Source of the DNA: Eledone cirrhosa
Taxonomy: Eukaryota
Reading direction: 5' to 3'
Assembly: GCA_964016885.1 (NCBI GenBank)
Contig: OZ024757.1
Location: 8,122,001-8,186,000, forward strand
DNA length: 64,000 nucleotides
Part shown: positions 2,636 to 64,000 of the stretch, piece after piece
Numbering within the stretch: the first letter of the stretch is position 1
Layout of the letters: each line of letters opens with the position of its first letter
Notes under the pieces: model-generated
Databases searched by the model: none
What the model saw: only the letters and a program-made list of their open reading frames with translations
What the model was told of the DNA's origin: nothing
Program-made: the position numbers and the translations under genes

Positions 2636-4165
2636 TTGCTTCCTGTGAATGTTTGCTGCCTACTGCTCCTGTGCAATGGCCACATGTAAAACCTATATTC
2701 TTAGCTAACCTACCTGAGATCCCACTACATCTCTTGTGTATCCATTGTTTGTATTTTGGACAGAGAATGGAATTTCTACCTACACCTTTCTAGCACACAG
2801 AGCAAGGCCATTTTTCTGAGGGTATCAGGGCCCTGTTTTCCCTTCTACTGATACTTGGCTGGCTAACCCAGACATAGTCCTCAACAAATGAAACACTAGT
2901 GGAGTCGTAGGGGTACACTAAGTGACATACAGTATTTCTCAGGCATATTTAAAAACCTGATGGAGCCCATAACCTCTCTCGTTTGAACAGAATTGAGATC
3001 TGAATAAAACTTCAAGTGAAATCAGATATTGTATGGATTCATATAGACTCGTAACTCCTGGTCTAAACACAGCCGATTTCTCCCAGAGGAAGATAGAAAA
3101 GAAGTAAGAAAAAGATGTAGAGGAACAATTGACTCCTACTAATAAAAAGATGGAAGTTAAACTGTTGTTGTCATGTCACCAGGAGAGGAGATAATAGCTG
3201 AGGCCTGAGAGTGAACATAGCTTAAACAAAAGTGTTGATGAGTAGAAAAGAGGACAAAACTCTGATTCCATCGTGGAAATGGCCATGTTCGATATGTGGG
3301 AAAGGAACTGGCATAAATTCCATAAAATGTACGCAATGCAGATGTTGGGTACACAAGAGATGTAGTGGGATAGCAGGCAAACCAACAGTTAGGGATAACT
3401 ATGTATGCAGTAGATGTACAAGGAAAGTTGGCAGTAGTAATCGCAGTGATAAACACATTTTTCAAATACAGGTGGGTTCTATAGATGTGGTTGATAGCTT
3501 CCGGTACCTAGGTGATCAGATTAGCATGGGAGGGGTGTTCCGAGGCCATAGTATCTAGAATAAGGATGGGTTGGAAGAAGTCTAGGGAGCTGCTTTCTCT
3601 GTTGACAAAGAAGGGTTTGTCCCTGCATACGAAAGGATGGTTATATGATGCCGATGTGCGATGCTGCATGGTAGTAAGACATGGGCAGCAACTGCAAAGG
3701 ATAAACACAGCCGATTTCTCCCAGAGGAAGATAGAAAAGAAGTAAGAAAAAGATATAGAGAAACAATTGATTCCTACTAATAAAAAGATGGAAGTTAAAC
3801 TGTTGTTGTCATGTCACCAGGAGAGGAGATAATAGCTATGTTAGAGAGTCCTATCAGAAGGAATTTTTCACTAAACTGCCATAGAGCAGACTTCTCTAGA
3901 GATAGAAGGATAACATTTATAGAGCATGCTGGAATACCACTGTTTGCATTGGAGAGAATTACTCTGGACAGGAAAGTTGATATCTACAGTCTACCAATAT
4001 AGAAATATAAAATTTCCACTGTTAAATCTATCTCTGCTTCTTAAGTATTCTCTATTATCTCATACTGTTTCTTTCTTATTTCAGAATACCAGTTGACATT
4101 GGGATAAATATGATATTATTTTCAATCTCGGATACATCACCTCTATTTATCATCATTTGAAGACT

Positions 4166-4639: not shown

Positions 4640-4965
4640 TACAGTCATTTATATATATATGTGTGTGTTTTGAACAATGAAAATAAAACTAGAGATAAAG
4701 ATATGTTCTTAATTAGTTCATTGTTTTACGATCATTTCAGAGATTTGATTGATCATGGTAGATTGATATATTGACAAACAGGTAGTTGTTATGTCACTAA
4801 CTATTTCTAGTCTCAAAATCCCTGATCAATCACACCGTATCAATATATTGATTTACCATGATCAATCAACCCTCTGAAACGATTGTAAAACAATGAACCA
4901 TATCTCAGACTTTTGTTTTATTTTCAATGTTCAATACCCACAAACACACATATATAATTGACAAT
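4640..4965. mobile_element. Fold-back/MITE-like element with imperfect inverted arms (about 4650-4775 and 4838-4958)
   Basis: gttcattgttttacgatcatttcagag...gattgatcatggta is reverse-complemented in taccatgatcaatc...ctctgaaacgattgtaaaacaatgaac; a related piece lies at 5570-5640. Confidence 0.6.
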
Positions 4966-7433: not shown

Positions 7434-8340
7434 ACAGTCATGATAACAATATATTTTATATCACATGTAACAGTGGAATCTGGTTAATTACTGGATCGTT
7501 GCAGGGGTCACATCATTATATTATTTACACACATTAATATAGACATTAAGTAAATCTTTGTCAACTTACCTCCTTCACATATAATCAATGTGTTGTGTTG
7601 TTAGTTGTTACTAAACAACCAAAGAAATAATCTCTTTGTTATCAAATTAGAAGTTTCAATGTTATCAGCTTTATTTCACGACATTAAAGTTGGTGTATCT
7701 TCTTCATCAAATCTGTAGCTAAAGACATAAAGTCAGCCTCATTACTTCATTCTGACAAGATATCAATTTATAACTAAAGATGAAGAAGATACACCAACTT
7801 TAGTCATAAATTGATATCTTGTCAGAATGAAGTAATGAGGCTGACTTTATGTCTTTAGCTACAGATTTGATCGGAAATATATATATATTAGGTTGATATG
7901 TGGTCTAAAATATATATATTGTCTATAAATGACTGATAGCAGATGTTCTGGTGAAATAGTAGTTTTACTACTACAGATTGTAATGGAACTCCTAGTAGAC
8001 ACAATTGTAAAGTAAGAATAGATATGACAGTGTAAGACCGATATCGGGGAGAAAAAACTGTGTATATATATATATATATATATAATTGTTACACAAGATA
8101 TAATTAGATTGAGAAGGCAACAGGTACTCGATGTCGTTGGAAATGATTTAACTCCCTTACCGGTGTCATTAGTTAAAAGTCCCTGATATAATTTAATACG
8201 TTCAGACAGTTCCAATAGTATTTAACCGATAGTAAATGAAAAGGTATCACTCAGTAAAATATCAATTATATATCAATGTAGTGTCTCTGACTGCTAGAAA
8301 TAGCAGTGAAATTATCCATTACAGACTTTTCTTTCTTTAA
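7405..8340 (-). promoter_or_regulatory. Putative promoter and non-coding first exon of ZNF-A; paralog of 22945-23830
   Basis: About 900 bp collinear with 22945-23830; conserved minus-strand donor gaaggag|gtaagt at 7570. Confidence 0.5.
7706..7871. repeat. 74-bp-stem hairpin created by a 90-bp inverted insertion (7709-7798)
   Basis: 7706-7779 pairs with 7798-7871 with one mismatch; the insertion is absent from the paralog at 23221-23310. Confidence 0.93.
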
Positions 8341-13346: not shown

Positions 13347-14279
13347 TTAAGATTTCTCCTCTGCATGTATGAGTTTGTGAGTAGTTAGGCTACTTTCCCC
13401 AGAGAATGATATACCACAAATATCACAGTGATATGGCTTGTCTCCTGTATGGGTACGTTTGTGGCTAGTTAAGGTACTACTTTGAGAGAATGATTTACCA
13501 CAGATATCACAGTTATATGGCTTGTCTCCTGTATGTATACGCTTGTGTCTAGTGAAGGTACTACCATCAGAGAATGATTTACCACAGATATCACAGTTAT
13601 ATGGCTTGTCTCCTGTATGTATATGTTTGTGGCTAGTTAAGTGACTACTTTGAGAGAATGATTTACCACAGATATCACAGTGATATGGCTTGTCTCCTGT
13701 ATGCATATGTTTGTGGCTAGTTAAGTTACTATTTTGAGAGAATGATTTACCACAGATATCACAGTTATATGGCTTGTCTCCTGTATGTATACGCTTGTGT
13801 CTAGTGAAGGTACTACCATCAGAGAATGATTTACCACAGATATCACAGTGACATGGCTTGTCTCCTGTATGTATATGTTTGTGGCTAGTTAAGTGACTAC
13901 TTTGAGAGAATGATTTACCACAGATATCACAGTGATATGGCTTGTCTCCTGTATGTATATGTTTGTGGCTAGTTAAGTGACTACCATGACAGTATGATTT
14001 ACCACAGATATCACAGAGGTATGGCTTGTCTCCTGTATGTGTACGGTTGTGGCTAGTTAAGGTACCACTTACAGAGAAAGATTTACCACAGATATCACAG
14101 TGATATGGCTTATCTCCTGTATGTGTACGTTTGTGGCTAGTTAAGGTACTACTTAGAGAGAATGATTTACCACAGATATCGCAGTGATATGGTTTCTCAC
14201 CCGTATGGGTATGTATGTGAGAAGTTAGGGTACTACTATTAGAGAATGATTTACTGCAGATATCACAGTGATATGGCAT
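13347..14279 (-). CDS. C2H2 zinc-finger protein (ZNF-B), 11 tandem fingers, 310 aa
   Basis: Eleven CxxC-x12-HxxxH units with TG(E/D)KPY linkers and no stops. The upstream leader and fingers (14280-14613) are frameshifted, so coding status is uncertain. Confidence 0.75.
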   Translation of the reverse strand: MPYHCDICSKSFSNSSTLTSHIHTHTGEKPYHCDICGKSFSLSSTLTSHKRTHTGDKPYHCDICGKSFSVSGTLTSHNRTHTGDKPYLCDICGKSYCHGSHLTSHKHIHTGDKPYHCDICGKSFSQSSHLTSHKHIHTGDKPCHCDICGKSFSDGSTFTRHKRIHTGDKPYNCDICGKSFSQNSNLTSHKHMHTGDKPYHCDICGKSFSQSSHLTSHKHIHTGDKPYNCDICGKSFSDGSTFTRHKRIHTGDKPYNCDICGKSFSQSSTLTSHKRTHTGDKPYHCDICGISFSGESSLTTHKLIHAEEKS

Positions 14280-14965
14280 GCCTCCTGTATGGGTAGGTTT
14301 GTGATCAGTTAAGTGACTGCTGAGAGAGAATGATTTACCACAGATATCACATTGATATGGCTTATGTCCTGTATGGGTACGTTGTGAGAAGTTAAGTCAC
14401 TACTTCGAGAGAATTATTTACCACAGATATCACAATATGGCTTATCTCCTGTATGTATAACTTTGTGAGTAGTTAAGGTACTAAGTTTATTAAATTATTG
14501 ACCAGATATCACAGTGATATGGCTTCTCTTCTCTAACCTTCGTCGTCTCACCAGGAATACTAAACACTTTAGATTGTGTTTCGCATTTAATCTTCTTTGT
14601 CAATTATTTTCCATAATTATTCCTTCTTCAACAGAATATACAGATGTTTTCCTTGTAATTTTTTTTATATTATATTTCTTATAAAATATTTCTTCTTCTA
14701 TATTTCCCTCAACTATATTTCAGTTAACATCTGAAGATAATACAAACTTCTTTTTCATCCAAGTTTAGTTAAAATACAAAATCATCTGACAGTGAAGAAA
14801 ATAAACTCAGTTTTGAGGAAATATTTCACAGTAATATTACGAGAGATTTATATAAACAGTGTTATATAAGTTCTGCTTAGAATGTTTTAGTCTTAAAATG
14901 ATGATAAATAGAGGTGATATATCCAAGATTGAAAATAATAATTTATCCCAATGTCATCTGATATT
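14280..14965 (-). pseudogene. Decayed original N-terminus and first three fingers of ZNF-B, with exon start at 14965
   Basis: ATG GAA AAT AAT TGA from 14613; out-of-frame KIKCETQSKVFSIPGETTKVREEKPYHCDI; acceptor ttcttatttcag at 14967-14966. Confidence 0.7.
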
Positions 14966-15069
14966 CTGAAATAAGAAAGAAACAGTATGAGATAATACAG
15001 AATACTTTAGAAGCAGAGATAGATTTAACAGTGGAAATTTTATATTTCTATATTGGTAAATTGTAGACT

Positions 15070-22944: not shown

Positions 22945-23499
22945 TATAGACGGAGGTAATTAAATAATAAAGACAGTCATGATAACAATATATTTTCTAT
23001 CACATGTAACAGTGGAATCTGGTTAATTACTCGATTGTTGTAGGGGTCACGTAATTATATTATTTACACACATTAATATAGACATTAAGTAAATCTTTGT
23101 CAACTTACCTCCTTCACATATAATCAATGTGTTGTGTTGTTACTAAACAACCAAAGAAATAATCTCTTTGTTATCAAATTAGAAGTTTCAATGTTATCAG
23201 CTTTATTTCACGACATTAACGTTGGTGTATCTTCTTCATCTTTAGTCATAAATTGATATCTTGTCAGAATGAAGTAGTGAGGCTGACTTTATGTCTTTAG
23301 CTACAGATTAGATAGGAAATATATATATATTAGGTTGATATCTGGTCTAAAATATATATATGTCTATAAATGACTGATAGCAGATGTTCTGGTGAAATAG
23401 TAGTTTTACTACTACAGATTGTAATGGAACTCTTAGTAGACACAATTGTAAAGTAAGAATAGATATGACAGTGTAAGACTGATGTCGGGGAATTAAAAT

Positions 23500-23531
<32 letters not shown>

Positions 23532-23830
23532 ATTGTTACACAAGATATAATTAGATTAATTAAAGTTATAATGAAGACAGCAGGTACCCGGTGTCGTTGA
23601 GAATGTTTCAACTCTTGTTCCGGTGTCATACCTTACAAGTCCCTGATATAATTTAATACCTTCAGACACAGTTCCAATCGTATTTAATTGATTGTAAATC
23701 AGAAAGTATCAGTCAGTAAAATATCAATTATACATCAATAATAAAACCCCTACGTAGTCTCACTAACTGCTAGAAATAGCAGTGATATTATCCATTACAA
23801 CTTAGTTTTTTTTTCTTTAAATCTCCAAAG
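22945..23830 (-). promoter_or_regulatory. Putative promoter and non-coding first exon of ZNF-B
   Basis: Paralog of 7405-8340; donor gaaggag|gtaagt at 23109; same relation to the acceptor at 14965 as 7570 has to 108. Confidence 0.5.
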
Positions 23831-23913
23831 TTTAGTTATACAATCAACATTAAATCTTTTGTACAGACTTCGGAATAAACTGGAAGACCGTCAGAATATC
23901 ATTCTCCCTCTTG

Positions 23914-23958
<45 letters not shown>

Positions 23959-24131
23959 TTAGGTTTGTTGGCTCACCACTGGATAGAACTGGTCATTCCG
24001 TATAGTCAACCTTGATGTAATATTAGGGAGAGCACTCGACGTAATCCTATATTTCAGGTTATTGTTATCATGACTGTCTTTATTATTTGGTCTGAGAGTC
24101 GGCCCTTGTGGCCAATAAATGAAATCATTAT

Positions 24132-24280
24132 TTGGTCTGAGTTCAAATCCTGCCGAGGTTAACTTTGCCTTTCATCCTTACGCGGTCGATAAAATAAAGT
24201 ACCAGTCACGCACTGAGGTCGATTTAATCGACTTTCCCCTCCCCCCAAATTGCAGGCCTTGTGCCTAAATAAGAAACCAT
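24132..24280 (+). mobile_element. Nin-domain tRNA SINE (partial)
   Basis: B box gagttcaaatcc; ctttgcctttcatcct...gtcgataaaataaagtaccag. Confidence 0.7.
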
Positions 24281-24575
24281 TATAACTTTAATTAATCTAA
24301 TTCCATCTCTTGTGTAACAAATATATATATATATATATATATTTATTAAAATAACAAATTAAAGTTTAAGCAAAGAATCGCTGCTTTCACCCTTAACGGG
24401 ATCTTCTGAAACTAACAAAGTCAATCTGTAAACGCAGAACTGGATATTTCAAAAAAGGTTGCAACCGGAGGAAGACAGGAAGACGATACACACAATTTTC
24501 TCTCCCCGACATCAGTCTTACACTGTCATATCTATTCTTACTTTACAATTGTGTCTACTAAGAGTTCCATTACAA

Positions 24576-28659: not shown

Positions 28660-29122
28660 GGCACTACCATGCTATTAGCTGTCACAAGTTCCGTCAACCT
28701 TCTCAATAGTAAACATCCTTTATTTCTGTATTACCATGGGTTATTTTAATAAAGCATATCGATGTAAGTGGTGTTACTAAAATGGAAATATAGGTGGCCC
28801 TTAAAAGGGGACAAATTAGAAAAGAAATTTAAGTTTATAAACAAATATATGGTTATCAAATTTGTTTCACCAACCCTATACATGAAATTGATAACCATGA
28901 CTATGAAAATATAAATGATTAAATCCAATTTATTTGATAACCATGACTTATTTTCTAATCTTGCCCTTTTAAGGGCCACCTATATTTTCATTTAAGTAAC
29001 AACACCACTTACATGGATATGCTTTATTAAAATATAGCGTGGTAATACGGAAATAAAGGATGTTTACGATTGAGAAGGTTGGCGAAACTTTCACTTGTGA
29101 CAGCTAATAGCATGGTAGTGCC
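28660..29122. mobile_element. MITE/fold-back element with about 165-bp inverted arms
   Basis: GGCACTACCATGCTATTAGCTGTCACAAG ... CTTGTGACAGCTAATAGCATGGTAGTGCC; arms 28660-28823 and 28951-29122; no clear TSD. Confidence 0.85.
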
Positions 29123-37371: not shown

Positions 37372-40300
37372 ATCATCATCATCATCATCATCAACGTTTA
37401 ACGTCCGTGTTCCACGCTTGCATGGGTTTGGACGGGGGTAGTCCCACTTGAGGCAAGAGTGATTGTCTTGCTCGCATAGGACTGTCTGGCAGGTTTTCTA
37501 CAGTTGGATGCCCTTCCTAACACCAACCACATTTACAGTGTGGGTCTGGGAGGTTTTTACCGTGTTGCCTACACGGCCACATTACAGCGTGGACTGTGTG
37601 TTTTTTTGTCGTGACACCTACACGATCTCATTTGTTTCAGCCTGGATGGCGCGGCACCAACATAACTTTACATAGGACGGGGTGGTGTGGATGGGGTGGG
37701 GGTGGTGGTGGTGGGACGGGGTGTATTTTGTTAGAGATGCCTACTGGCTGGAGTAGGTTTTACTATATATTTAGGTAAGGCGGGTCTTCTCTGTTACTGA
37801 GTACTGCCAAAGGTCTCGGTCCAGTGACATTGTCTTGGAGAGGTGTAAGTGTGTGAGGTCGGAGTTTATCAGCTCGTCCCAGGTTTTTCTAGGTCTGCCT
37901 ATTCCGTGGCTACCGTCTATCTTTATTGCCCTGCACTTTGTTATACAGCTATCGACTTTCATGCGCATCACGTGTCCATACCAACGTAGCCTTCTCTCGA
38001 GTAAACAGCATCTGATCCCTCTTATCTCTAATTTTTTTTTTCTTAGTTCGTTTATGCTTTGCCGTTCACGTATATTACTGTTACACATCCAGCGGAGCAT
38101 GCAAGCTTCGTTCCTCTCTAGTCTGCGTATATCCTCTGCACACAATGCCCATGTCTCACTGCCATGCAACATTGCTGTTCGTATGCAGGCATCGTACAAC
38201 CTGCCTTTCATTTTTAGGGAGAACCCTTTAGCAGCTAATAGTGGTATAAGCTCTCTGAACTTTTTCCAACCAGTTCTGACTCTAGCTACAGTACTTTCAG
38301 AGCACCCTCCCCCACTGCTGATTTTATCGCCCAGGTAACGGAAGCTGTCCACTATTTCTATAGAACCCTCTGCGCAATTGAAAGAGCTAGAATTTTGTGG
38401 GCACTTGCTGCTACTTATTGCACCAGAACACCGGCCACATGTAAAATCTATGTTCTTAGTTAGCTTACCTGTGATCCCACTACATCTTTTATGCACCCAT
38501 ACTTTGCATTTAGGACACAAAATGGAGTTTCTACCTACGCCTTTCCTACACACCGAGCACGACCATTTCCCAGAAGGGACCGCCGCCTTGTTTTCTTTCC
38601 TACAAACTAGAACTTTGGTCTTAGCCAGGTTAATTTTAAGTCCTTTTGACTCTAGGCCGTGCTTCCATGTTTGGAATTTCTTCTCTAGCTCGGCCATTGA
38701 TTCCGCTATGAGTGTCAGGTCGTCTGCGTATAGGAGTTCCCATGGGCAGCCTGTCTTGAACTCCTCTGTTATAGCCTGAAGGGCAATAATAAATAGTATG
38801 GGGCTGAGAACAGAGCCCTGATGGACGCCAACTTTTATGCTAAACTCTTCACTATATTCGTTGTTAATTCTAACCTTGCTGACTGTTTCTTTATACATGG
38901 CTTGTATAGCCCTCACATGCCATTCGTCAACGCCTAGTTTTCGTAGAGCCCACCAGATAATGGAGCGGGGGACTCTGTCGAAGGCTTTCTCCAAGTCGAC
39001 AAAAGCTAAGTAGAGGGGTTTACCTTTAGCTAGGTACTTCTCCTGTAGTTGTCGTACTATGAAAAGAGCGTCTGTGGTACTTTTGCCTGACACAAACCCG
39101 AACTGCATTTCATCTAGGTCAATTCTCTCTCTGATTAGTTGCGCTATTACTTTTTCCGTGACCTTCATGACCTGGTCGATTAATTTAATGCCTCTATAGT
39201 TACTCCTATCTAGGGCGTCTCCTTTACCCTTATAACAGTTAACGATGATGCTGCTATGCCAGTCCTTCGGAACAACCCCATTCTGTATGACTTGGTTAAC
39301 TATGTGGGTGACCATGGTGTGTCCCACCGTGCCAGATGCCTTCAGCATCTCAGCAACTATTTCCGAAGGCCCAGCCGCCTTACCCGTCTTCATATCCTTG
39401 ATTGCTTTACTTATTATACTCCCCTCGACTAACACTGCTGGTCCCTCTATTGGGTCAATATGGGGGAGACTGTCTTTCTCCCATTTATTCTCCTCATTTA
39501 GTAGCCTTTCATAGTGACACTTCCAAGCTACCTTCTTATCAGTGTCGGTGATGGCAAGTATGCCATCATCGTTAAGTACACACTTCTCCCCGACAATATC
39601 ACGGTTTTCCTTGACGCATTGCCTAGCAATCCTGAACACCTCACGTTTTTGGTCATCGTGTTGTAGAACATGCTTGAACTTTCTTTCCTCAGCTTCCCTT
39701 CTTGCTAAGTACACTTCTCTCCTAGCTTCCCTCCTGGCCACTTGATAGTCTACTCTACTTCCCCCATCCCGCCATACTTTCCAAGCCTGCTTTTTGGCCT
39801 TAATTGACCCCTCCACCTTACTGTTCCACCACCATGTTACTCTCCTCCTGCCTACAGGCCTGCTCCAGCCACAGACTTCGTCTGTCGCCAACAGCAGGTT
39901 TGCTTTCAGAAATTCCCACTGTCCCTCTATATTGTCCGACTCTAAATGTTCTTCCTTACTGTCGAAAGCATCAAGTAATATGTTTTGAAATTTATTTTTG
40001 GCTGTGGGGTCCTTTAGCTTCCATATTTTTCTCCTGAGGATAGTCCTCTTCTGCTGTCGAGTACGTCTCGTCCTGACTATGAGGTCGCTAATTATCAGTC
40101 TATGTTGGGAGGTGCATTCTTCATGGGGGAGGGATTTAGTGTTTACAACAGACACTCTGTCACGTCTTCTGGTAAGGATATAATCTACCTGGCTTGTATG
40201 TTCCCCCGATCTATAGGTGATCAGGTGATTGTCTCGTTTTTTGAAGTTAGTGTTACAGATAGTTAGGTTATTTGCATCACAGAATTCCAGGATTCTGGAG

Positions 40301-40764
40301 CCTTCCTCATTTCTAGTACCAAACCCATAGCCTCCATGGATTTCGTCGTAGCCGTCACAATGTTGTCCAACGTGACCATTTAGGTCGCCTGCAATAATTA
40401 TATAGTCACTGTCAGATATTTGGGAGGTAGTTAGCAACAGTGTCTCATAGAATCTGTCTTTTATAGTGCCGGGCAGTCCGGATTGGGGTGCGTACGCAGA
40501 TATTACTGTCACCGTAGTTCTATTGAGGACAAGTCGTATTTTAATTATTCTGTCGTTCACTCTATTTACGTCTATTATCTTATCTGCCCACTTTTCTGCT
40601 ACCATGATTCCTACTCCAGCCAGCCCATCGTCGTTTCCCACCCAGAAAAGCTTATAACATCGATTTTTACCCTCAATGAATCTAGCAGACCCACCCCTCC
40701 ACCTGGTCTCTTGAATACAACAAACATCGACCTCCTTACGTTCAAGCATTTTTACAACCTCGTT
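37372..40764 (-). mobile_element. Young RTE-clade LINE, slightly 5'-truncated
   Basis: Uninterrupted ORF, about 400-bp 3'UTR and (GAT)n tail; no 5'UTR. Confidence 0.97.
37771..40749 (-). CDS. RTE ORF: APE endonuclease, reverse transcriptase and embedded PHD-type finger, 992 aa
   Basis: CIQETRW, SAYAPQ, GDLNGHVG, QVDYIL, TSQHR; NYRGIKL, FVDLEKAFDRVP, GVHQGSVLSP, LYADD; C4HC3 motif; FRYLG; RLRWYGHV, GRPRKTW. Confidence 0.95.
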   Translation of the reverse strand: MLERKEVDVCCIQETRWRGGSARFIEGKNRCYKLFWVGNDDGLAGVGIMVAEKWADKIIDVNRVNDRIIKIRLVLNRTTVTVISAYAPQSGLPGTIKDRFYETLLLTTSQISDSDYIIIAGDLNGHVGQHCDGYDEIHGGYGFGTRNEEGSRILEFCDANNLTICNTNFKKRDNHLITYRSGEHTSQVDYILTRRRDRVSVVNTKSLPHEECTSQHRLIISDLIVRTRRTRQQKRTILRRKIWKLKDPTAKNKFQNILLDAFDSKEEHLESDNIEGQWEFLKANLLLATDEVCGWSRPVGRRRVTWWWNSKVEGSIKAKKQAWKVWRDGGSRVDYQVARREARREVYLARREAEERKFKHVLQHDDQKREVFRIARQCVKENRDIVGEKCVLNDDGILAITDTDKKVAWKCHYERLLNEENKWEKDSLPHIDPIEGPAVLVEGSIISKAIKDMKTGKAAGPSEIVAEMLKASGTVGHTMVTHIVNQVIQNGVVPKDWHSSIIVNCYKGKGDALDRSNYRGIKLIDQVMKVTEKVIAQLIRERIDLDEMQFGFVSGKSTTDALFIVRQLQEKYLAKGKPLYLAFVDLEKAFDRVPRSIIWWALRKLGVDEWHVRAIQAMYKETVSKVRINNEYSEEFSIKVGVHQGSVLSPILFIIALQAITEEFKTGCPWELLYADDLTLIAESMAELEKKFQTWKHGLESKGLKINLAKTKVLVCRKENKAAVPSGKWSCSVCRKGVGRNSILCPKCKVWVHKRCSGITGKLTKNIDFTCGRCSGAISSSKCPQNSSSFNCAEGSIEIVDSFRYLGDKISSGGGCSESTVARVRTGWKKFRELIPLLAAKGFSLKMKGRLYDACIRTAMLHGSETWALCAEDIRRLERNEACMLRWMCNSNIRERQSINELRKKKLEIRGIRCCLLERRLRWYGHVMRMKVDSCITKCRAIKIDGSHGIGRPRKTWDELINSDLTHLHLSKTMSLDRDLWQYSVTEKTRLT

Positions 40765-40799
40765 ATATATCTGTAATGTTATTTATATATATATATATA

Positions 40800-41392: not shown

Positions 41393-41861
41393 ACATATAT
41401 GTAATGTTATTTATATATATATATATATATATATAAAACATATCTGTAATGTTATTCAATTGAAATTTAAACTTAAAGGTGTAGTAATGCCACAAACGTT
41501 TTTCTATCTTTAAATAATTAGATACTTATTTATATAATTGTAAATACAAGTTCCACAGCACACACATATATATATATATACATGCTAGAGTCCCAGAGAA
41601 CGAGAGAAGAATGAAGGACAGGTATATGCATGGTAGAAATAGCAACCAAAGCCCAGCAAAGTACAGAATGAAGAACACACACACTCCCTCTCTCTTTCTC
41701 TCTCTCTCACACACACATATATATTTATGTATGCATGTATGTATATGGTTAATGGAATTATGTAATAAAATGAAGATGTACAAATAAAACTGTCTCTCTT
41801 ATTTATTACACTGACACTTCGATTGATACCTTACTGAGAAAATCCTAATCGTAAAGTGCTT

Positions 41862-41897
<36 letters not shown>

Positions 41898-41929
41898 GTG
41901 TAGGACATGAGTATATATATATATATATA

Positions 41930-42192
41930 TATCATCATCACCGTTTTACGTCCGTTCTTCCACGCTAGCATGGGTTGGACGGGTTGTCCTGTTGTGTGCA
42001 GTGTCTGGTCGGCTGACCATGCCTTGCTCATACAGGAACTGATCTGGCTTGATTTCTACAGCTGGATGCCCTTCCTAACACCAACCTCATTTACAGTGAG
42101 TGCTGGGTGCTTTTTCGTGGCGCCTACACGTCCACTTTACAGTGTGGGCTGGTGCTTTTTTGCCGTGGCACCTCCACGACCACCTTGCGGTG
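41930..42192 (-). mobile_element. RTE/SINE 3' tail fragment
   Basis: catcatcaccgttttacgtcc...cagctggatgcccttcctaacacc. Confidence 0.8.
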
Positions 42193-42353
42193 GGGGGGAG
42201 GGGGGGCATATTGTTTATATGCTTCAGCATGTACCCATGGGAGGTCGGGTACTCTGTATTACTGCGTGACGCCAGAAGTCACGGTCGTGTGTCATTCTCT
42301 TTGAGAGGTGTATTCAAAATATTAACAAAAATAGACATTCGTGTGATCAAGTA

Positions 42354-42420
42354 TATTTTAAAATACATATTTCAGAGGTACTGAGCTATCTTCAACAGTA
42401 CGTCCTCATCAGATAAAATA
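42354..42420 (-). ncRNA. Type I hammerhead ribozyme motif (inverted copy, changes next to the cleavage site)
   Basis: Minus strand: tattttat CTGATGA gga c gtact...agtac c tct GAAA tatgtatt ttaaaata. Confidence 0.6.
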
Positions 42421-42499
42421 AGATGATGCATGACATACCCTGACATACCCTGCCTGAATCTTAACCATCTACTATGTCAGGGTATGCCATGCTTCATCT

Positions 42500-42566
42500 T
42501 ATTTTATCTGATGAGGACGTACTATTGAAGATAGCTCAGTACCTCTGAAATATGTATAATAAAATA
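42500..42566 (+). ncRNA. Type I hammerhead ribozyme motif
   Basis: Stem I UAUUUUAU/AUAAAAUA; CUGAUGA 42508-42514; stem II GGA-C-GUACU/AGUAC-C-UCU; GAAA 42547-42550; minimal stem III AUA-UG-UAU; predicted cleavage after A42558. Confidence 0.75.
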
Positions 42567-42611
42567 TACTTGATCACACGAATGTCTATTTTTGTTAATA
42601 TTTTGAATTAA

Positions 42612-42657
<46 letters not shown>

Positions 42658-42705
42658 GTAAAGCACGATTAGGATTTTCTCAGTAAGGTATCAATGGAAG
42701 TGTCA

Positions 42706-61345: not shown

Positions 61346-61376
<31 letters not shown>

Positions 61377-61504
61377 AAAGTTTTATTTAAAATTGTTGGG
61401 TTACAACAAGTAAATATTTTATAACTGATATAAAGCACTCGACAAGTTTTTGGAGTAGATATACGATATTAAACAAATGGAAACTATATTTATAAAACCA
61501 TATT

Positions 61505-61570
61505 TATTTCATTATACATATTTCAGGGATACCATATTAAAAATATGGCATGCCTTCGTCAGATAAAATA
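61505..61570 (-). ncRNA. Type I hammerhead ribozyme motif
   Basis: UAUUUUAU CUGACGA AGG-C-AUGCCAUAUU UUU AAUAUGGUAU-C-CCU GAAA UAUGUAUA AUGAAAUA. Confidence 0.8.
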
Positions 61571-62089
61571 CAATATATAAACAGTTTTATAAATAATTTT
61601 GACGTACCATATTATAAGCGACCATTATATTAGGAAGCTGTCTGGATAATGAATTGTTTATAATTATTTAGTTATAGTGTTAAGTACAGTTAGAAGAAAG
61701 ACGGAGAGAAAGAAACGGAGAGAAAGAAAAGGAGAGAGAGTAAAAATATATAAATAGATAGGAGAAAGAAATAAGAGTGGCAAACGAAATCAACAGATAA
61801 ATAATAATTCCCCATACATATAGAGAAACTCAAGAGAGAGGGAGTCCTATATATAGAGAGAAGGATAATAATTATTTAAAAGATAAAAATTATTTAAAAG
61901 ATTTAGAAGACCCAGTGATTCTACGGATGCCCTTATATTTAGTATAGAAATTTATCTTGCGTAAAATTTAGAGTAGTTTATTACATCTTTGTTTATATTT
62001 AGGAAGAAGGTTTAAAAAGAAAAAGGTGAAGGAATCAAATGATTTATCGTCAGGTTTCATATATTAACTAAATTTCTTAATTAATTATA

Positions 62090-62345
62090 CTACATTTTAA
62101 ATTTATATTTATATTTAAACGTTGAGTTCAATCTATGTCTGCAGCAACTGAATAAATTGCTCCTTAAATTAAGGAAATTTTTGGACTTTAATATAAAGAA
62201 TACCTCCTCCACACAGAGATCACATGTCTCTGATGAGGAATTAAAAGGAATCCCTTTTGAGACAATATTCCAAAACATCGAATACTTAACATTATCTCGT
62301 TTAAGTTGCCAGAGTAGGCTTGATAGCGAAGTTGAGGATTTTTTG
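62090..62345 (-). pseudogene. C-terminal part of a Penelope-like GIY-YIG endonuclease
   Basis: STSLSSLLWQLK..KYSMFWNIV....FN...TCDLCVEE.FFI.....LNLRSNLFSCCRH matches the C-terminus I recognise from EN+ PLE proteins. Confidence 0.75.
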
Positions 62346-63882
62346 TAATAAACTACTCTAAAATGTATATGCTCCCAATGTATTAAATACATTTTACGCA
62401 AGATAAATTTCTATACTAAATATAAGGGCATCCGTAGAATCACTGGGTCTTCTAAATCTTTTTAATAATTTTTGTTAAATAATTTTTGTTTTTTATTTGT
62501 TTTTTACTCTAATAGCTTCTAACTAACTTTGCAATATATTGTTTGAAATATAGGAAGGATAGATTTCTGTAGTAAATATATGAAGCATATTGTTTTTGGC
62601 CTGAGATACTCTATAGTGTGTTGAAAGTATTTTAATGTTTTGATGTTTCTGTGCTGATATATTGATATTTGATTATCTCTATACAAAGGCCATATGTGTA
62701 TTAACATGCATATAGAAAGTTTATAGAGTTTATTTTATGTGTTCATGTGTCTGTATATGTGCGTAAAGATGCTGGAAAACTCACGCAGATATTTTATATA
62801 TACATATATATATATATTTAGGTATGGTTCTGTATATGTTACAGATATGCATAATATTAAATACATGAACGGTAATCATATATGTGAGGACATGAATATT
62901 AATCGTATATTTTATGTATATATACAGTGAAATTTTTATAACACAAGACATTTTTTTATGACACAAGAAATTATAGAGTTGATCAAGTGAAGTCATATGT
63001 ATGTCTATATTATTGACTAGAGTTAGACATAATTTTCTCTTTTTTCTTTTTTCAGGAAGTACATATACGTGTATATATATATACATATATATTTCCGTAT
63101 TTTTATAAATAGGGTAATTTTTTGAAGGTTTTATCTCAGTTTTTGGTATATTAACCTCAGAGTTTTAAACTAAACATATGGTCATTATTGAACAATGTTA
63201 TTTTCTCATATTATATATATCTATGTCTCATTCATGAATATTGATATTTGCATTTTTATTATCCTTTTCATATGAATTGATAATTCAAATTGATATGACA
63301 TGACGTAAAGATGTAACTGTATCCTTCTCTCTATATATAGCACTTTCTCTTCTCTCTTGAGTTTATCTTTATGTATGATGAATTATTATGTATCTGTCGT
63401 TTTCGTTTGCCTCTCTTATTTCTCTCTTGTTTCTTTTTCACTTCCTCTTATCTATTTATATTCTCTCTCTCTCTGTTTTTTTCTCCTCCCCCCTCTCTCT
63501 CTCCGTTTTTTCTTTTTTCTTTATCTACGTTTTTTCTTTCTCTCCGTCTTTTTTCTATCTGTGCTTAACACTATAACTAAATAATTATTATCCTTCTCTC
63601 TATATATAGGACTCCCTCTCTCTTGAGTTTCTCGATATGTATGGGGAATTATTTATCTGTTGCTTTCGTTTGCCTCTCTTATTTCTTTCTCCTATCTATT
63701 TATATATTTTTTCTCTCTCTCCTTTTCTTTCTCTCCGTTTCTTTCTCTCCGTCTTTCTTCTAACTGTGCTTAACACTATAACTAAATAATTATAAACAAT
63801 TCATTATCCAGACAGCTTCCTAATATAATGGTCGCTTATAATATGGTACGTCAAAATTATTTATAAAACTGTTTATATATTG

Positions 63883-63948
63883 TATTTTATCTGACGAAGA
63901 CATGCCATATTTTTAATATGGTATCCCTGAAATATGTATAATGAAATA
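63883..63948 (+). ncRNA. Type I hammerhead ribozyme motif
   Basis: CUGACGA 63891-63897, GAAA 63929-63932; same stems as the 61505-61570 copy with one G>A change in stem II. Confidence 0.75.
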
Positions 63949-64000
63949 AATATGGTTTTATAAATATAGTTTCCATTTGTTTAATATCGTATATATATAT

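Follow-up and report, generated by a model that had tools for sequence, protein, structure and literature searches.

The 297-bp palindrome at 42312-42608 is probably a single, heavily 5'-truncated insertion of the hammerhead-bearing 3' end of a Hydra-clade Penelope-like element (PLE), the mirror half of which was likely made during insertion. It lies in a window (the whole stretch of Eledone cirrhosa DNA that was analysed) of 64 kb that also holds a larger sister element. Read as a mirror-image insertion, the two ribozymes of the palindrome are likely one motif copied twice. Rather than a new RNA switch, the palindrome is likely a commonplace outcome of PLE insertion. The features concerned are the following.

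41931-42312, minus strand: 5'-truncated 3' stub of a LINE family, adjoining the left end of the palindrome and lying outside the element
42312-42447, minus strand: left arm, the same 3' end as the right arm, inverted and shorter; 131/136 complementary
42354-42420, minus strand: second hammerhead motif (left arm), likely weakened, with the cut-site base changed and the first stem I pair lost
42446-42452 with 42478-42484 (42446-42484), plus strand: 7-bp internal inverted repeat at the fold-back point, a candidate self-priming hairpin
42448-42472, plus strand: spacer, which continues the family's sense strand upstream from the right arm according to contig coverage in run X1; no separate loop
42473-42608, plus strand: right arm, the element's 3' end in sense orientation, including an intact hammerhead motif; it terminates 50 nt past the predicted cut
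42500-42566, plus strand: type I hammerhead motif (right arm) with CUGAUGA core and GAAA; predicted cut after A42558
42609-42657, no strand: (TA)n tract at the right end of the palindrome, the likely insertion target
61374-63997, no strand: larger sister element with 423-bp inverted arms (97.6%), a partial tandem at 63320-63588 and both ends at (TA)n
61505-61570, minus strand: sister hammerhead in the left arm of the large element, by core pattern and pairing
62102-62350, minus strand: C-terminal remnant of a Penelope-like GIY-YIG endonuclease, with the CxxC..E..N..CxH motif
63883-63948, plus strand: sister hammerhead in the right arm of the large element, with one stem II pair broken

The palindrome and its hammerhead motifs

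The two arms measure 136 bp each, in agreement with the earlier note, and enclose a spacer of 25 nt. They differ at five places (42361/42559, 42362/42558, 42396/42524, 42427/42493 and 42433/42487), and an arm-against-arm comparison gives 131/136 complementary bases. The 297 bases are predicted to fold at -208 kcal/mol (z = -35), which was matched by none of 100 shuffles. The reported absence of coding sequence was also confirmed: the six frames of the 297-bp copy contain no stop-free stretch of at least 35 codons.

On its left, the palindrome meets the 5'-truncated end of the LINE stub, to which it is joined over a TA. The stub matches 37384-37625 and 37781-37847, the 3' end of the RT/endonuclease ORF at 37771-40782, and itself terminates at (TA)n. 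Palindrome and stub together lie within an older 57-bp inverted repeat (41812-41868 / 42654-42705). This outer repeat was rejected as a part of the element because it is more diverged (89%) and because the LINE stub intervenes on the left. The sense copy exceeds the inverted arm by 25 nt, which gives the head-to-head, 5'-truncated layout also found in PLEs. A one-sided 3' extension, an optional PLE feature, is absent at the 297-bp copy, where both ends stop at the same base, and no target-site duplication is readable there.

The window as a whole is animal DNA rich in LINE copies, C2H2 zinc-finger repeats and (TA)n. The LINE reading frame (37771-40782, minus strand, 1003 codons) encodes an endonuclease, an RT and a C-terminal PHD-finger match, and many truncated copies of it are present. 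Inverted arms of 966 bp (32-993 / 3200-4165, 99% identity), which include LINE fragments, represent a recent inverted duplication or insertion; the end of this structure also matches 14888-15067. In another palindrome (7706-7871, 166 bp, 93%) the left flank is its own centre reverse-complemented, like a one-sided tail, and no hammerhead was found in it. Older palindromic or nested inverted elements lie at 28660-29122, 4644-4962, 23419-24575 and 41812-42705, several of them around (TA)n and without a detected hammerhead. An 84-bp repeat array (13347-14396, minus strand) encodes tandem C2H2 zinc fingers, and another 84-bp array lies at ~31.9-32.8 kb. A sigma-70 promoter scan of the window stayed at chance level, this being a bacterial signal that is irrelevant for an animal.

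Two outward-facing hammerhead cores were confirmed, one on the plus strand from 42508 and one on the minus strand from 42412. The plus-strand cut predicted after A42558 is the one given in the earlier note, with GAAA at 42547-42550. The right-arm motif has the CUGANGA and GAAA core, the NUH cut site and the three helices closed by stem I that define a type I hammerhead. Stem I consists of eight A-U pairs. Stem II has three pairs, a C-C mismatch and five further pairs, with a loop of 14 nt. The first of the three pairs is G-U or A-U; alternatively, these are loose bases flanking the invariant G-C, a pattern reported for PLE hammerheads (PMC4209133). The 8 nt of stem III are self-complementary; they have no stable closure in the monomer and are predicted to pair weakly with a second molecule (-2.2 kcal/mol). 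The predicted monomer fold is weak as well, with helix probabilities of 0.05-0.10 for the motif alone and at most 0.03 with spacer and arm. According to a review, such motifs probably act as dimers with slow cleavage (PMC6765202).

In the left arm, the motif retains the core and lacks the first stem I pair, and it fails the type I hammerhead descriptor in a descriptor search. The changes at 42361-42362 fall on the cut-site base and on that first pair. The lost pair is more likely the damage than the change of the cut-site base. The A to U change at the left cut site was rejected as a ribozyme-killing change on its own, U being the cut-site base in 10/26 Hydra rows (PMC8557442).

The scan with hammerhead models that had been suggested gave no Rfam match, at E<=5 in the window and E<=10 in the element. 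The hammerhead call therefore rests on the core pattern, the pairing and the comparison with published Hydra-clade motifs. Two weak Rfam microRNA matches to the element are hairpin look-alikes, far below the gathering scores. A joint pattern of the stem I 5' strand, core and stem III matched four times in the window and not once in 100 shuffles. The matches are the two motifs of the palindrome plus 61514-61568 and 63885-63939, which supports the proposed relatedness to the 61.5/63.9-kb ribozymes. With a model built from these four motifs, no fifth one was detected in the window, the next-best match scoring 14 bits, and the ribozyme pattern had no match in metagenome contigs or in viral contigs. 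A lone CTGATGA core half with a short hairpin (62231-62265, on the strand opposite to the endonuclease remnant, without GAAA) is probably due to chance.

Stem II, in which the earlier note had seen covariation between the two families, was compared pair by pair. Three of eight pairs have changed on both sides and two on one side, and the control, in which the pairing was slid by 1-3 columns, gave no two-sided changes. The pair count, however, was not above that of shuffles (204/500). Drawn from the sequences of two families only, the covariation is suggestive only.

The sister element and the Hydra clade

The sister element at 61374-63997 is 2.6 kb long, inverted and decayed, and similarly carries its hammerhead near the 3' end. 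An extension of ~80 nt is present on one side only (61374-61455). This is the layout published for PLE copies, namely inverted 5'-truncated copies with one-sided tails (PMC8557442, Fig. 2 legend). The endonuclease remnant and the 61.5-kb hammerhead share a strand, the remnant lying ~530 nt upstream. Its 83 residues matched 1783 proteins at E<=0.001 in an index-free protein search. The CxxC..E..N..CxH motif of the remnant was found in 140 of the best 150 of these 1783 relatives, and a CxC-x4-6-C linker in 7/7 relatives of at least 250 aa among the same best 150. P0061, a 690-aa RT-endonuclease and the only match long enough to reach the RT N-terminus, has RWR and DKT. The published marks of the Hydra clade are CxxC and CxH around a conserved E and N, RWK-like and DKT motifs, and a CxCX5C linker (PMC8557442, section 11). 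The clade call rests on such motifs, and the RT regions with RWK-like, DKT and linker are missing from the window and were seen in relatives only. Pfam gave no name for the remnant nor for eight relatives. In two of the clusters of these eight a single member was named, in either case uninformatively. A word-indexed search of the remnant against longer proteins returned 0/26 candidates.

The PLE endonuclease remnant of the sister element, together with the common ribozyme design, provides the family assignment of the palindrome, whose family likely belongs to the Hydra clade on these sequence grounds. The CxxC/CxH motif is found in the sister's remnant and not within the 297-bp copy. A (TA)n tract borders the palindrome at its right end and the sister element at both ends. 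The two families can be aligned only over the 67-nt motif (74% identity). An autonomous parent of the palindrome's family was not found: the endonuclease remnant is in the sister element only, and the 297-bp copy has no ORF.

Known Hydra-clade PLEs (e.g., Penelope-13_HM and Hydra-1_Obim; Craig et al. 2021, PMC8557442) are alike in having a type I hammerhead near the 3' end and a palindromic stem III. They also share the extra base after the core and the U before GAA (14/26 rows), and they have an inverted 5'-truncated copy with hammerheads on both strands and a (TA)n target. Their CxxC/CxH endonuclease motifs recur in the sister element's remnant. A (TA)n target is recorded for 26/27 Hydra families and an octopus member exists (PMC8557442, File S1); for Penelope-13_HM, an inverted 5' copy and hammerheads on the two strands are recorded (PMC8557442, File S1/S2). 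The palindrome differs from these elements by the lack of an ORF in the 297-bp copy and by a long stem II with a C-C mismatch. Moreover, stem III starts with A-U here and with A-C in 26/26 Hydra rows (PMC8557442, File S2). None of the Hydra motifs listed in the supplement of PMC8557442 is the motif of the palindrome.

Independent loci were examined as well. P0036, a Hydra-type endonuclease relative, was used as single query and returned 46 metagenome loci (131 kb). A sense type I hammerhead lies 193-253 nt past the ORF match in 11/27 loci with at least 300 nt of room, most of them from one family, and a twelfth lies downstream of the ORF in a locus with less than 300 nt. The model of the four window motifs gave two matches at E<=1 in the 46 loci, both on the sense strand and just downstream of the ORF. 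The match in L035 (E=0.00024) has the same U-rich stem I and an A at the cut; the other is in L013 (E=0.13). In L017 (6061-6250), an unrelated metagenome contig, a perfect 190-bp palindrome carries two outward-facing type I hammerheads of a different family. The two-hammerhead layout is thus not special to this genome.

Family contigs and rival explanations

Thirteen runs from ten studies have words in common with the element, three of them at half or more; none is recorded as RNA. Four of the 20 listed runs (X1, X4, X6 and X14) were compared with the region 42430-42625, and contigs matching the element numbered 1116 in X1, one in X4 and three in X6. In X14 (raw reads from organism C, sampled at about 1 in 100) no read matched, an outcome that carries no weight. 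The organism behind X1 (organism A) has only 0.58 of the sampled words in common and may be a different species. The X1 contigs cover one arm plus the spacer, and one X4 contig spans 42464-42576. Summed contig depth, which is not copy number, falls in X1 from ~225,000 to 92 past the fold-back point (91.8 at 42430-42443 against 16,545-777,388 inside). The fold-back junction amounts to 0.04-1.3% of the family depth, a range set by contig fragmentation. The fall at the spacer fits a 31-letter ramp from full family depth at ~42446. Ramp and coverage together indicate that the spacer is the family's own upstream sense sequence.

As the junction is nearly absent from the X1 contigs, the palindrome looks particular to one insertion. 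The earlier note had taken the fold-back for a dedicated mobile unit, which a junction depth of 92 against ~225,000 does not support. One X1 contig does cross 42430 at depth 92, and several copies may have the same junction. Long hairpins may be depleted from short-read libraries. Only one opposite-strand joint is present among those listed for X1, and other fold-back copies were hardly seen. The loose ends of the X1 contigs include, among those listed, 42446, 42457, 42494, 42568, 42575 and 42576, and the 3' clip points of the family contigs vary (42561, 42568, 42575 and 42576). Three bases (42487, 42493 and 42524) are private to the right arm compared with the X1 family majority, the left arm having the family allele. 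At 42361-42362 the left arm is private and the right arm has the X1 majority. Both arms thus have changes of their own, and in the family the ribozyme is intact. One X1 contig joins 42561 to 42488 via a 7-nt TA tract (depth 103). The orientation of this joint is ambiguous; it possibly reflects tandem 81-nt units or a copy whose end coincides with the cut site of the ribozyme.

It had also been proposed that a transcript from either strand switches between a long hairpin and an active ribozyme. The computed folds do not support this, forcing of the ribozyme helices costing 93-95 kcal/mol in read-through RNA. In plus-strand computations, the helices had a pairing probability of 0.00 and a forcing cost of 94.5 kcal/mol in the whole transcript, and a cost of 92.8 kcal/mol in nascent RNA ending at 42570. 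On either strand the complementary arm is transcribed first, and the ribozyme helices are therefore shut out in read-through RNA. Folding of the motif would require an RNA that starts in the centre, in which it is still predicted to be disfavoured by 7 kcal/mol. For read-through RNA of the 297-bp copy, the prediction is a hairpin locked over 136 bp, from which double-stranded RNA is a likelier outcome than cleavage.

Other readings of the palindrome have to be weighed against this background. The template might have been a short, non-autonomous monomer of ~160 nt (42446-42608), a Hydra-clade parasite resembling a SINE or a retrozyme monomer, with the palindrome still made at insertion. This has a small chance of being right. 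In ten X1 contigs clipped at 42446, the parts upstream show little agreement (0.54), which is what unrelated flanks would give; the joint of 42561 to 42488 could be a tandem 81-nt unit, and pLTR-derived retrozyme monomers have already been described (bioRxiv 10.64898/2026.07.22.740005). However, the reference itself imposes the clip at 42446, the position at which it passes into the left arm. A tandem array of the unit is absent from the window and from the X1 contigs listed, and the sister family is plainly ORF-derived. A more specific form, in which an abundant ~160-nt Hydra-clade PLE parasite has its 7-bp hairpin programming the fold-back and some copies end at the cut site in tandem 81-nt units, is an outside chance. 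If true, the cleaved RNA end would be the start of reverse transcription, giving PLE hammerheads a direct role in mobilisation and bearing on the open question of their function. In the portion of the anole work available, such a role was not seen for that element in vitro (PMC11167929). The earlier note's own model, in which the palindromic retroelement is fixed, mobile as a whole and able to switch on either strand, is very unlikely. The depth of 92 over the left edge does exceed the 5-60 of most listed pieces, and depletion of hairpins from libraries could conceal more copies. Against it stand the low share of the junction and the cost of the ribozyme fold given above, the private changes at the left cut site, and a spacer of ordinary sense sequence.

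A DNA fold-back element or MITE, whose two long terminal inverted repeats are mobilised by a transposase with the ribozyme as passenger, would account for a short, non-coding element made up of inverted repeats at an AT-rich target, and the interior can be wholly lacking in MITEs (PMC8969392). It is nevertheless extremely improbable, as the arm is a PLE-type 3' end and the contigs have several 3' clip points instead of fixed termini. Fixed symmetric termini and a common centre were not found in the contigs of X1, X4 and X6, with the caveats of species and hairpin bias. In addition, none of seven family polymorphisms falls in the ribozyme core or stems (53/154 positions), although this is weak (P ~0.05). 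It is scarcely credible that the palindrome is an artefact of assembly or arose by a later inverted duplication in the genome, independently of retrotransposition. The window does contain other palindromes, including the 966-bp arms at 99%. Here, however, the arms differ at five places, each with private bases relative to the family majority, and the limits of the inversion coincide exactly, on both sides, with the 3' end of the element, no flank being included. The same layout also occurs again at 61.4-64.0 kb and in L017.

The proposed insertion and its significance

The reading of the palindrome as a retroelement thus stands as far as the Penelope-type type I hammerheads, the palindromic stem III and the non-coding retro-insertion are concerned, and falls with regard to the fixed fold-back unit and the switch. 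The truncated insertion may have arisen as follows. By analogy with published PLE biochemistry, a Penelope-like RT/GIY-YIG protein would nick the (TA)n tract, and reverse transcription of the element RNA would begin ~50 nt past the point of hammerhead cleavage. The sequence does show the (TA)n flank and a spacing of 50 nt between predicted cut and end. Copying would stop after ~160 nt, near 42446, a point to which the family's sense sequence continues through the spacer in the X1 contigs. The 3' end of the cDNA would then fold back on the 7-bp internal repeat and prime on itself. A cDNA ending at 42446 is predicted to fold back at -5.1 kcal/mol, with 42446-42452 complementary to 42478-42484. 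Subsequently, the self-primed cDNA would slip by one 10-nt repeat and copy itself outward, giving the inverted arm of 136 bp and leaving 25 nt unpaired. A 10-nt duplication is indeed found at the inner end of the left arm. The five differences between the arms, two of them at the left cut site, would reflect drift since insertion. In the parent RNA the motif would, to judge from published relatives, cleave weakly, via a stem III dimer or with the help of the element's protein. For the anole PLE hammerhead it was reported that protein is required for cleavage and that the hammerhead is dispensable for insertion in vitro (PMC11167929).

Palindromes at inverted PLE junctions have been read as self-priming before (Arkhipova et al. 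2013, PMC3846280). The inverted-pLTR Penelope insertions of Adineta vaga described there are head-to-head with a shorter inverted copy and a junction palindrome, as here. They differ from the present copy, in which no target-site duplication or one-sided tail is readable and the whole insertion is 297 bp. Pairs of opposite-strand hammerheads 100-700 bp apart were described in Schistosoma mansoni PLEs (Cervera and de la Pena 2014, PMC4209133); two motifs are likewise present here, with cores 96 nt apart. The minimal PLE hammerheads of that work have the same long helix II, unpaired or wobble base after A9 and adjacent invariant G-C pair. Their palindromic helix III is a likeness, while the 8-nt stem III palindrome here, against none in the motifs as described in the available text, is a difference. 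Stem I has 8 bp, all A-U, here and 4-5 bp in those motifs. Animal non-LTR retrozymes (bioRxiv 10.64898/2026.07.22.740005) are also non-coding and pLTR-related with a type I hammerhead. They are described as head-to-tail tandem units with a hammerhead in each, whereas the two copies here are inverted, so that one transcript never holds two sense ribozymes. At least two head-to-tail hammerhead units, as in a retrozyme, are not found: the copies are inverted, and the window has only four copies of the motif.

The earlier note had considered an undescribed family. Inverted hammerhead pairs are known for PLEs, and close opposite-strand pairs, inverted 5'-truncated copies and (TA)n targets are all published PLE features. 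The exact ribozyme was not found in the literature, a search that lay outside Repbase and Dfam. A 2026 octopus repeat annotation lists 31 Penelope-like families, with ribozymes unmentioned in the text available (PMC13282606), and the repeat library behind it may contain the family of the palindrome.

As it stands, the finding matters little, being one more inverted Penelope-like stub of a Hydra-type family. Mirrored PLE stubs of this kind are easily misfiled as MITEs or microRNA hairpins, as the two weak Rfam microRNA matches illustrate. In the consulted portions of PMC8557442, PMC3846280 and PMC11167929, self-priming at inverted PLE insertions is not yet shown experimentally. The palindrome is a clean specimen in this respect, since a 7-bp hairpin and a slip of 10 nt, both compatible with self-priming, are preserved at its junction.
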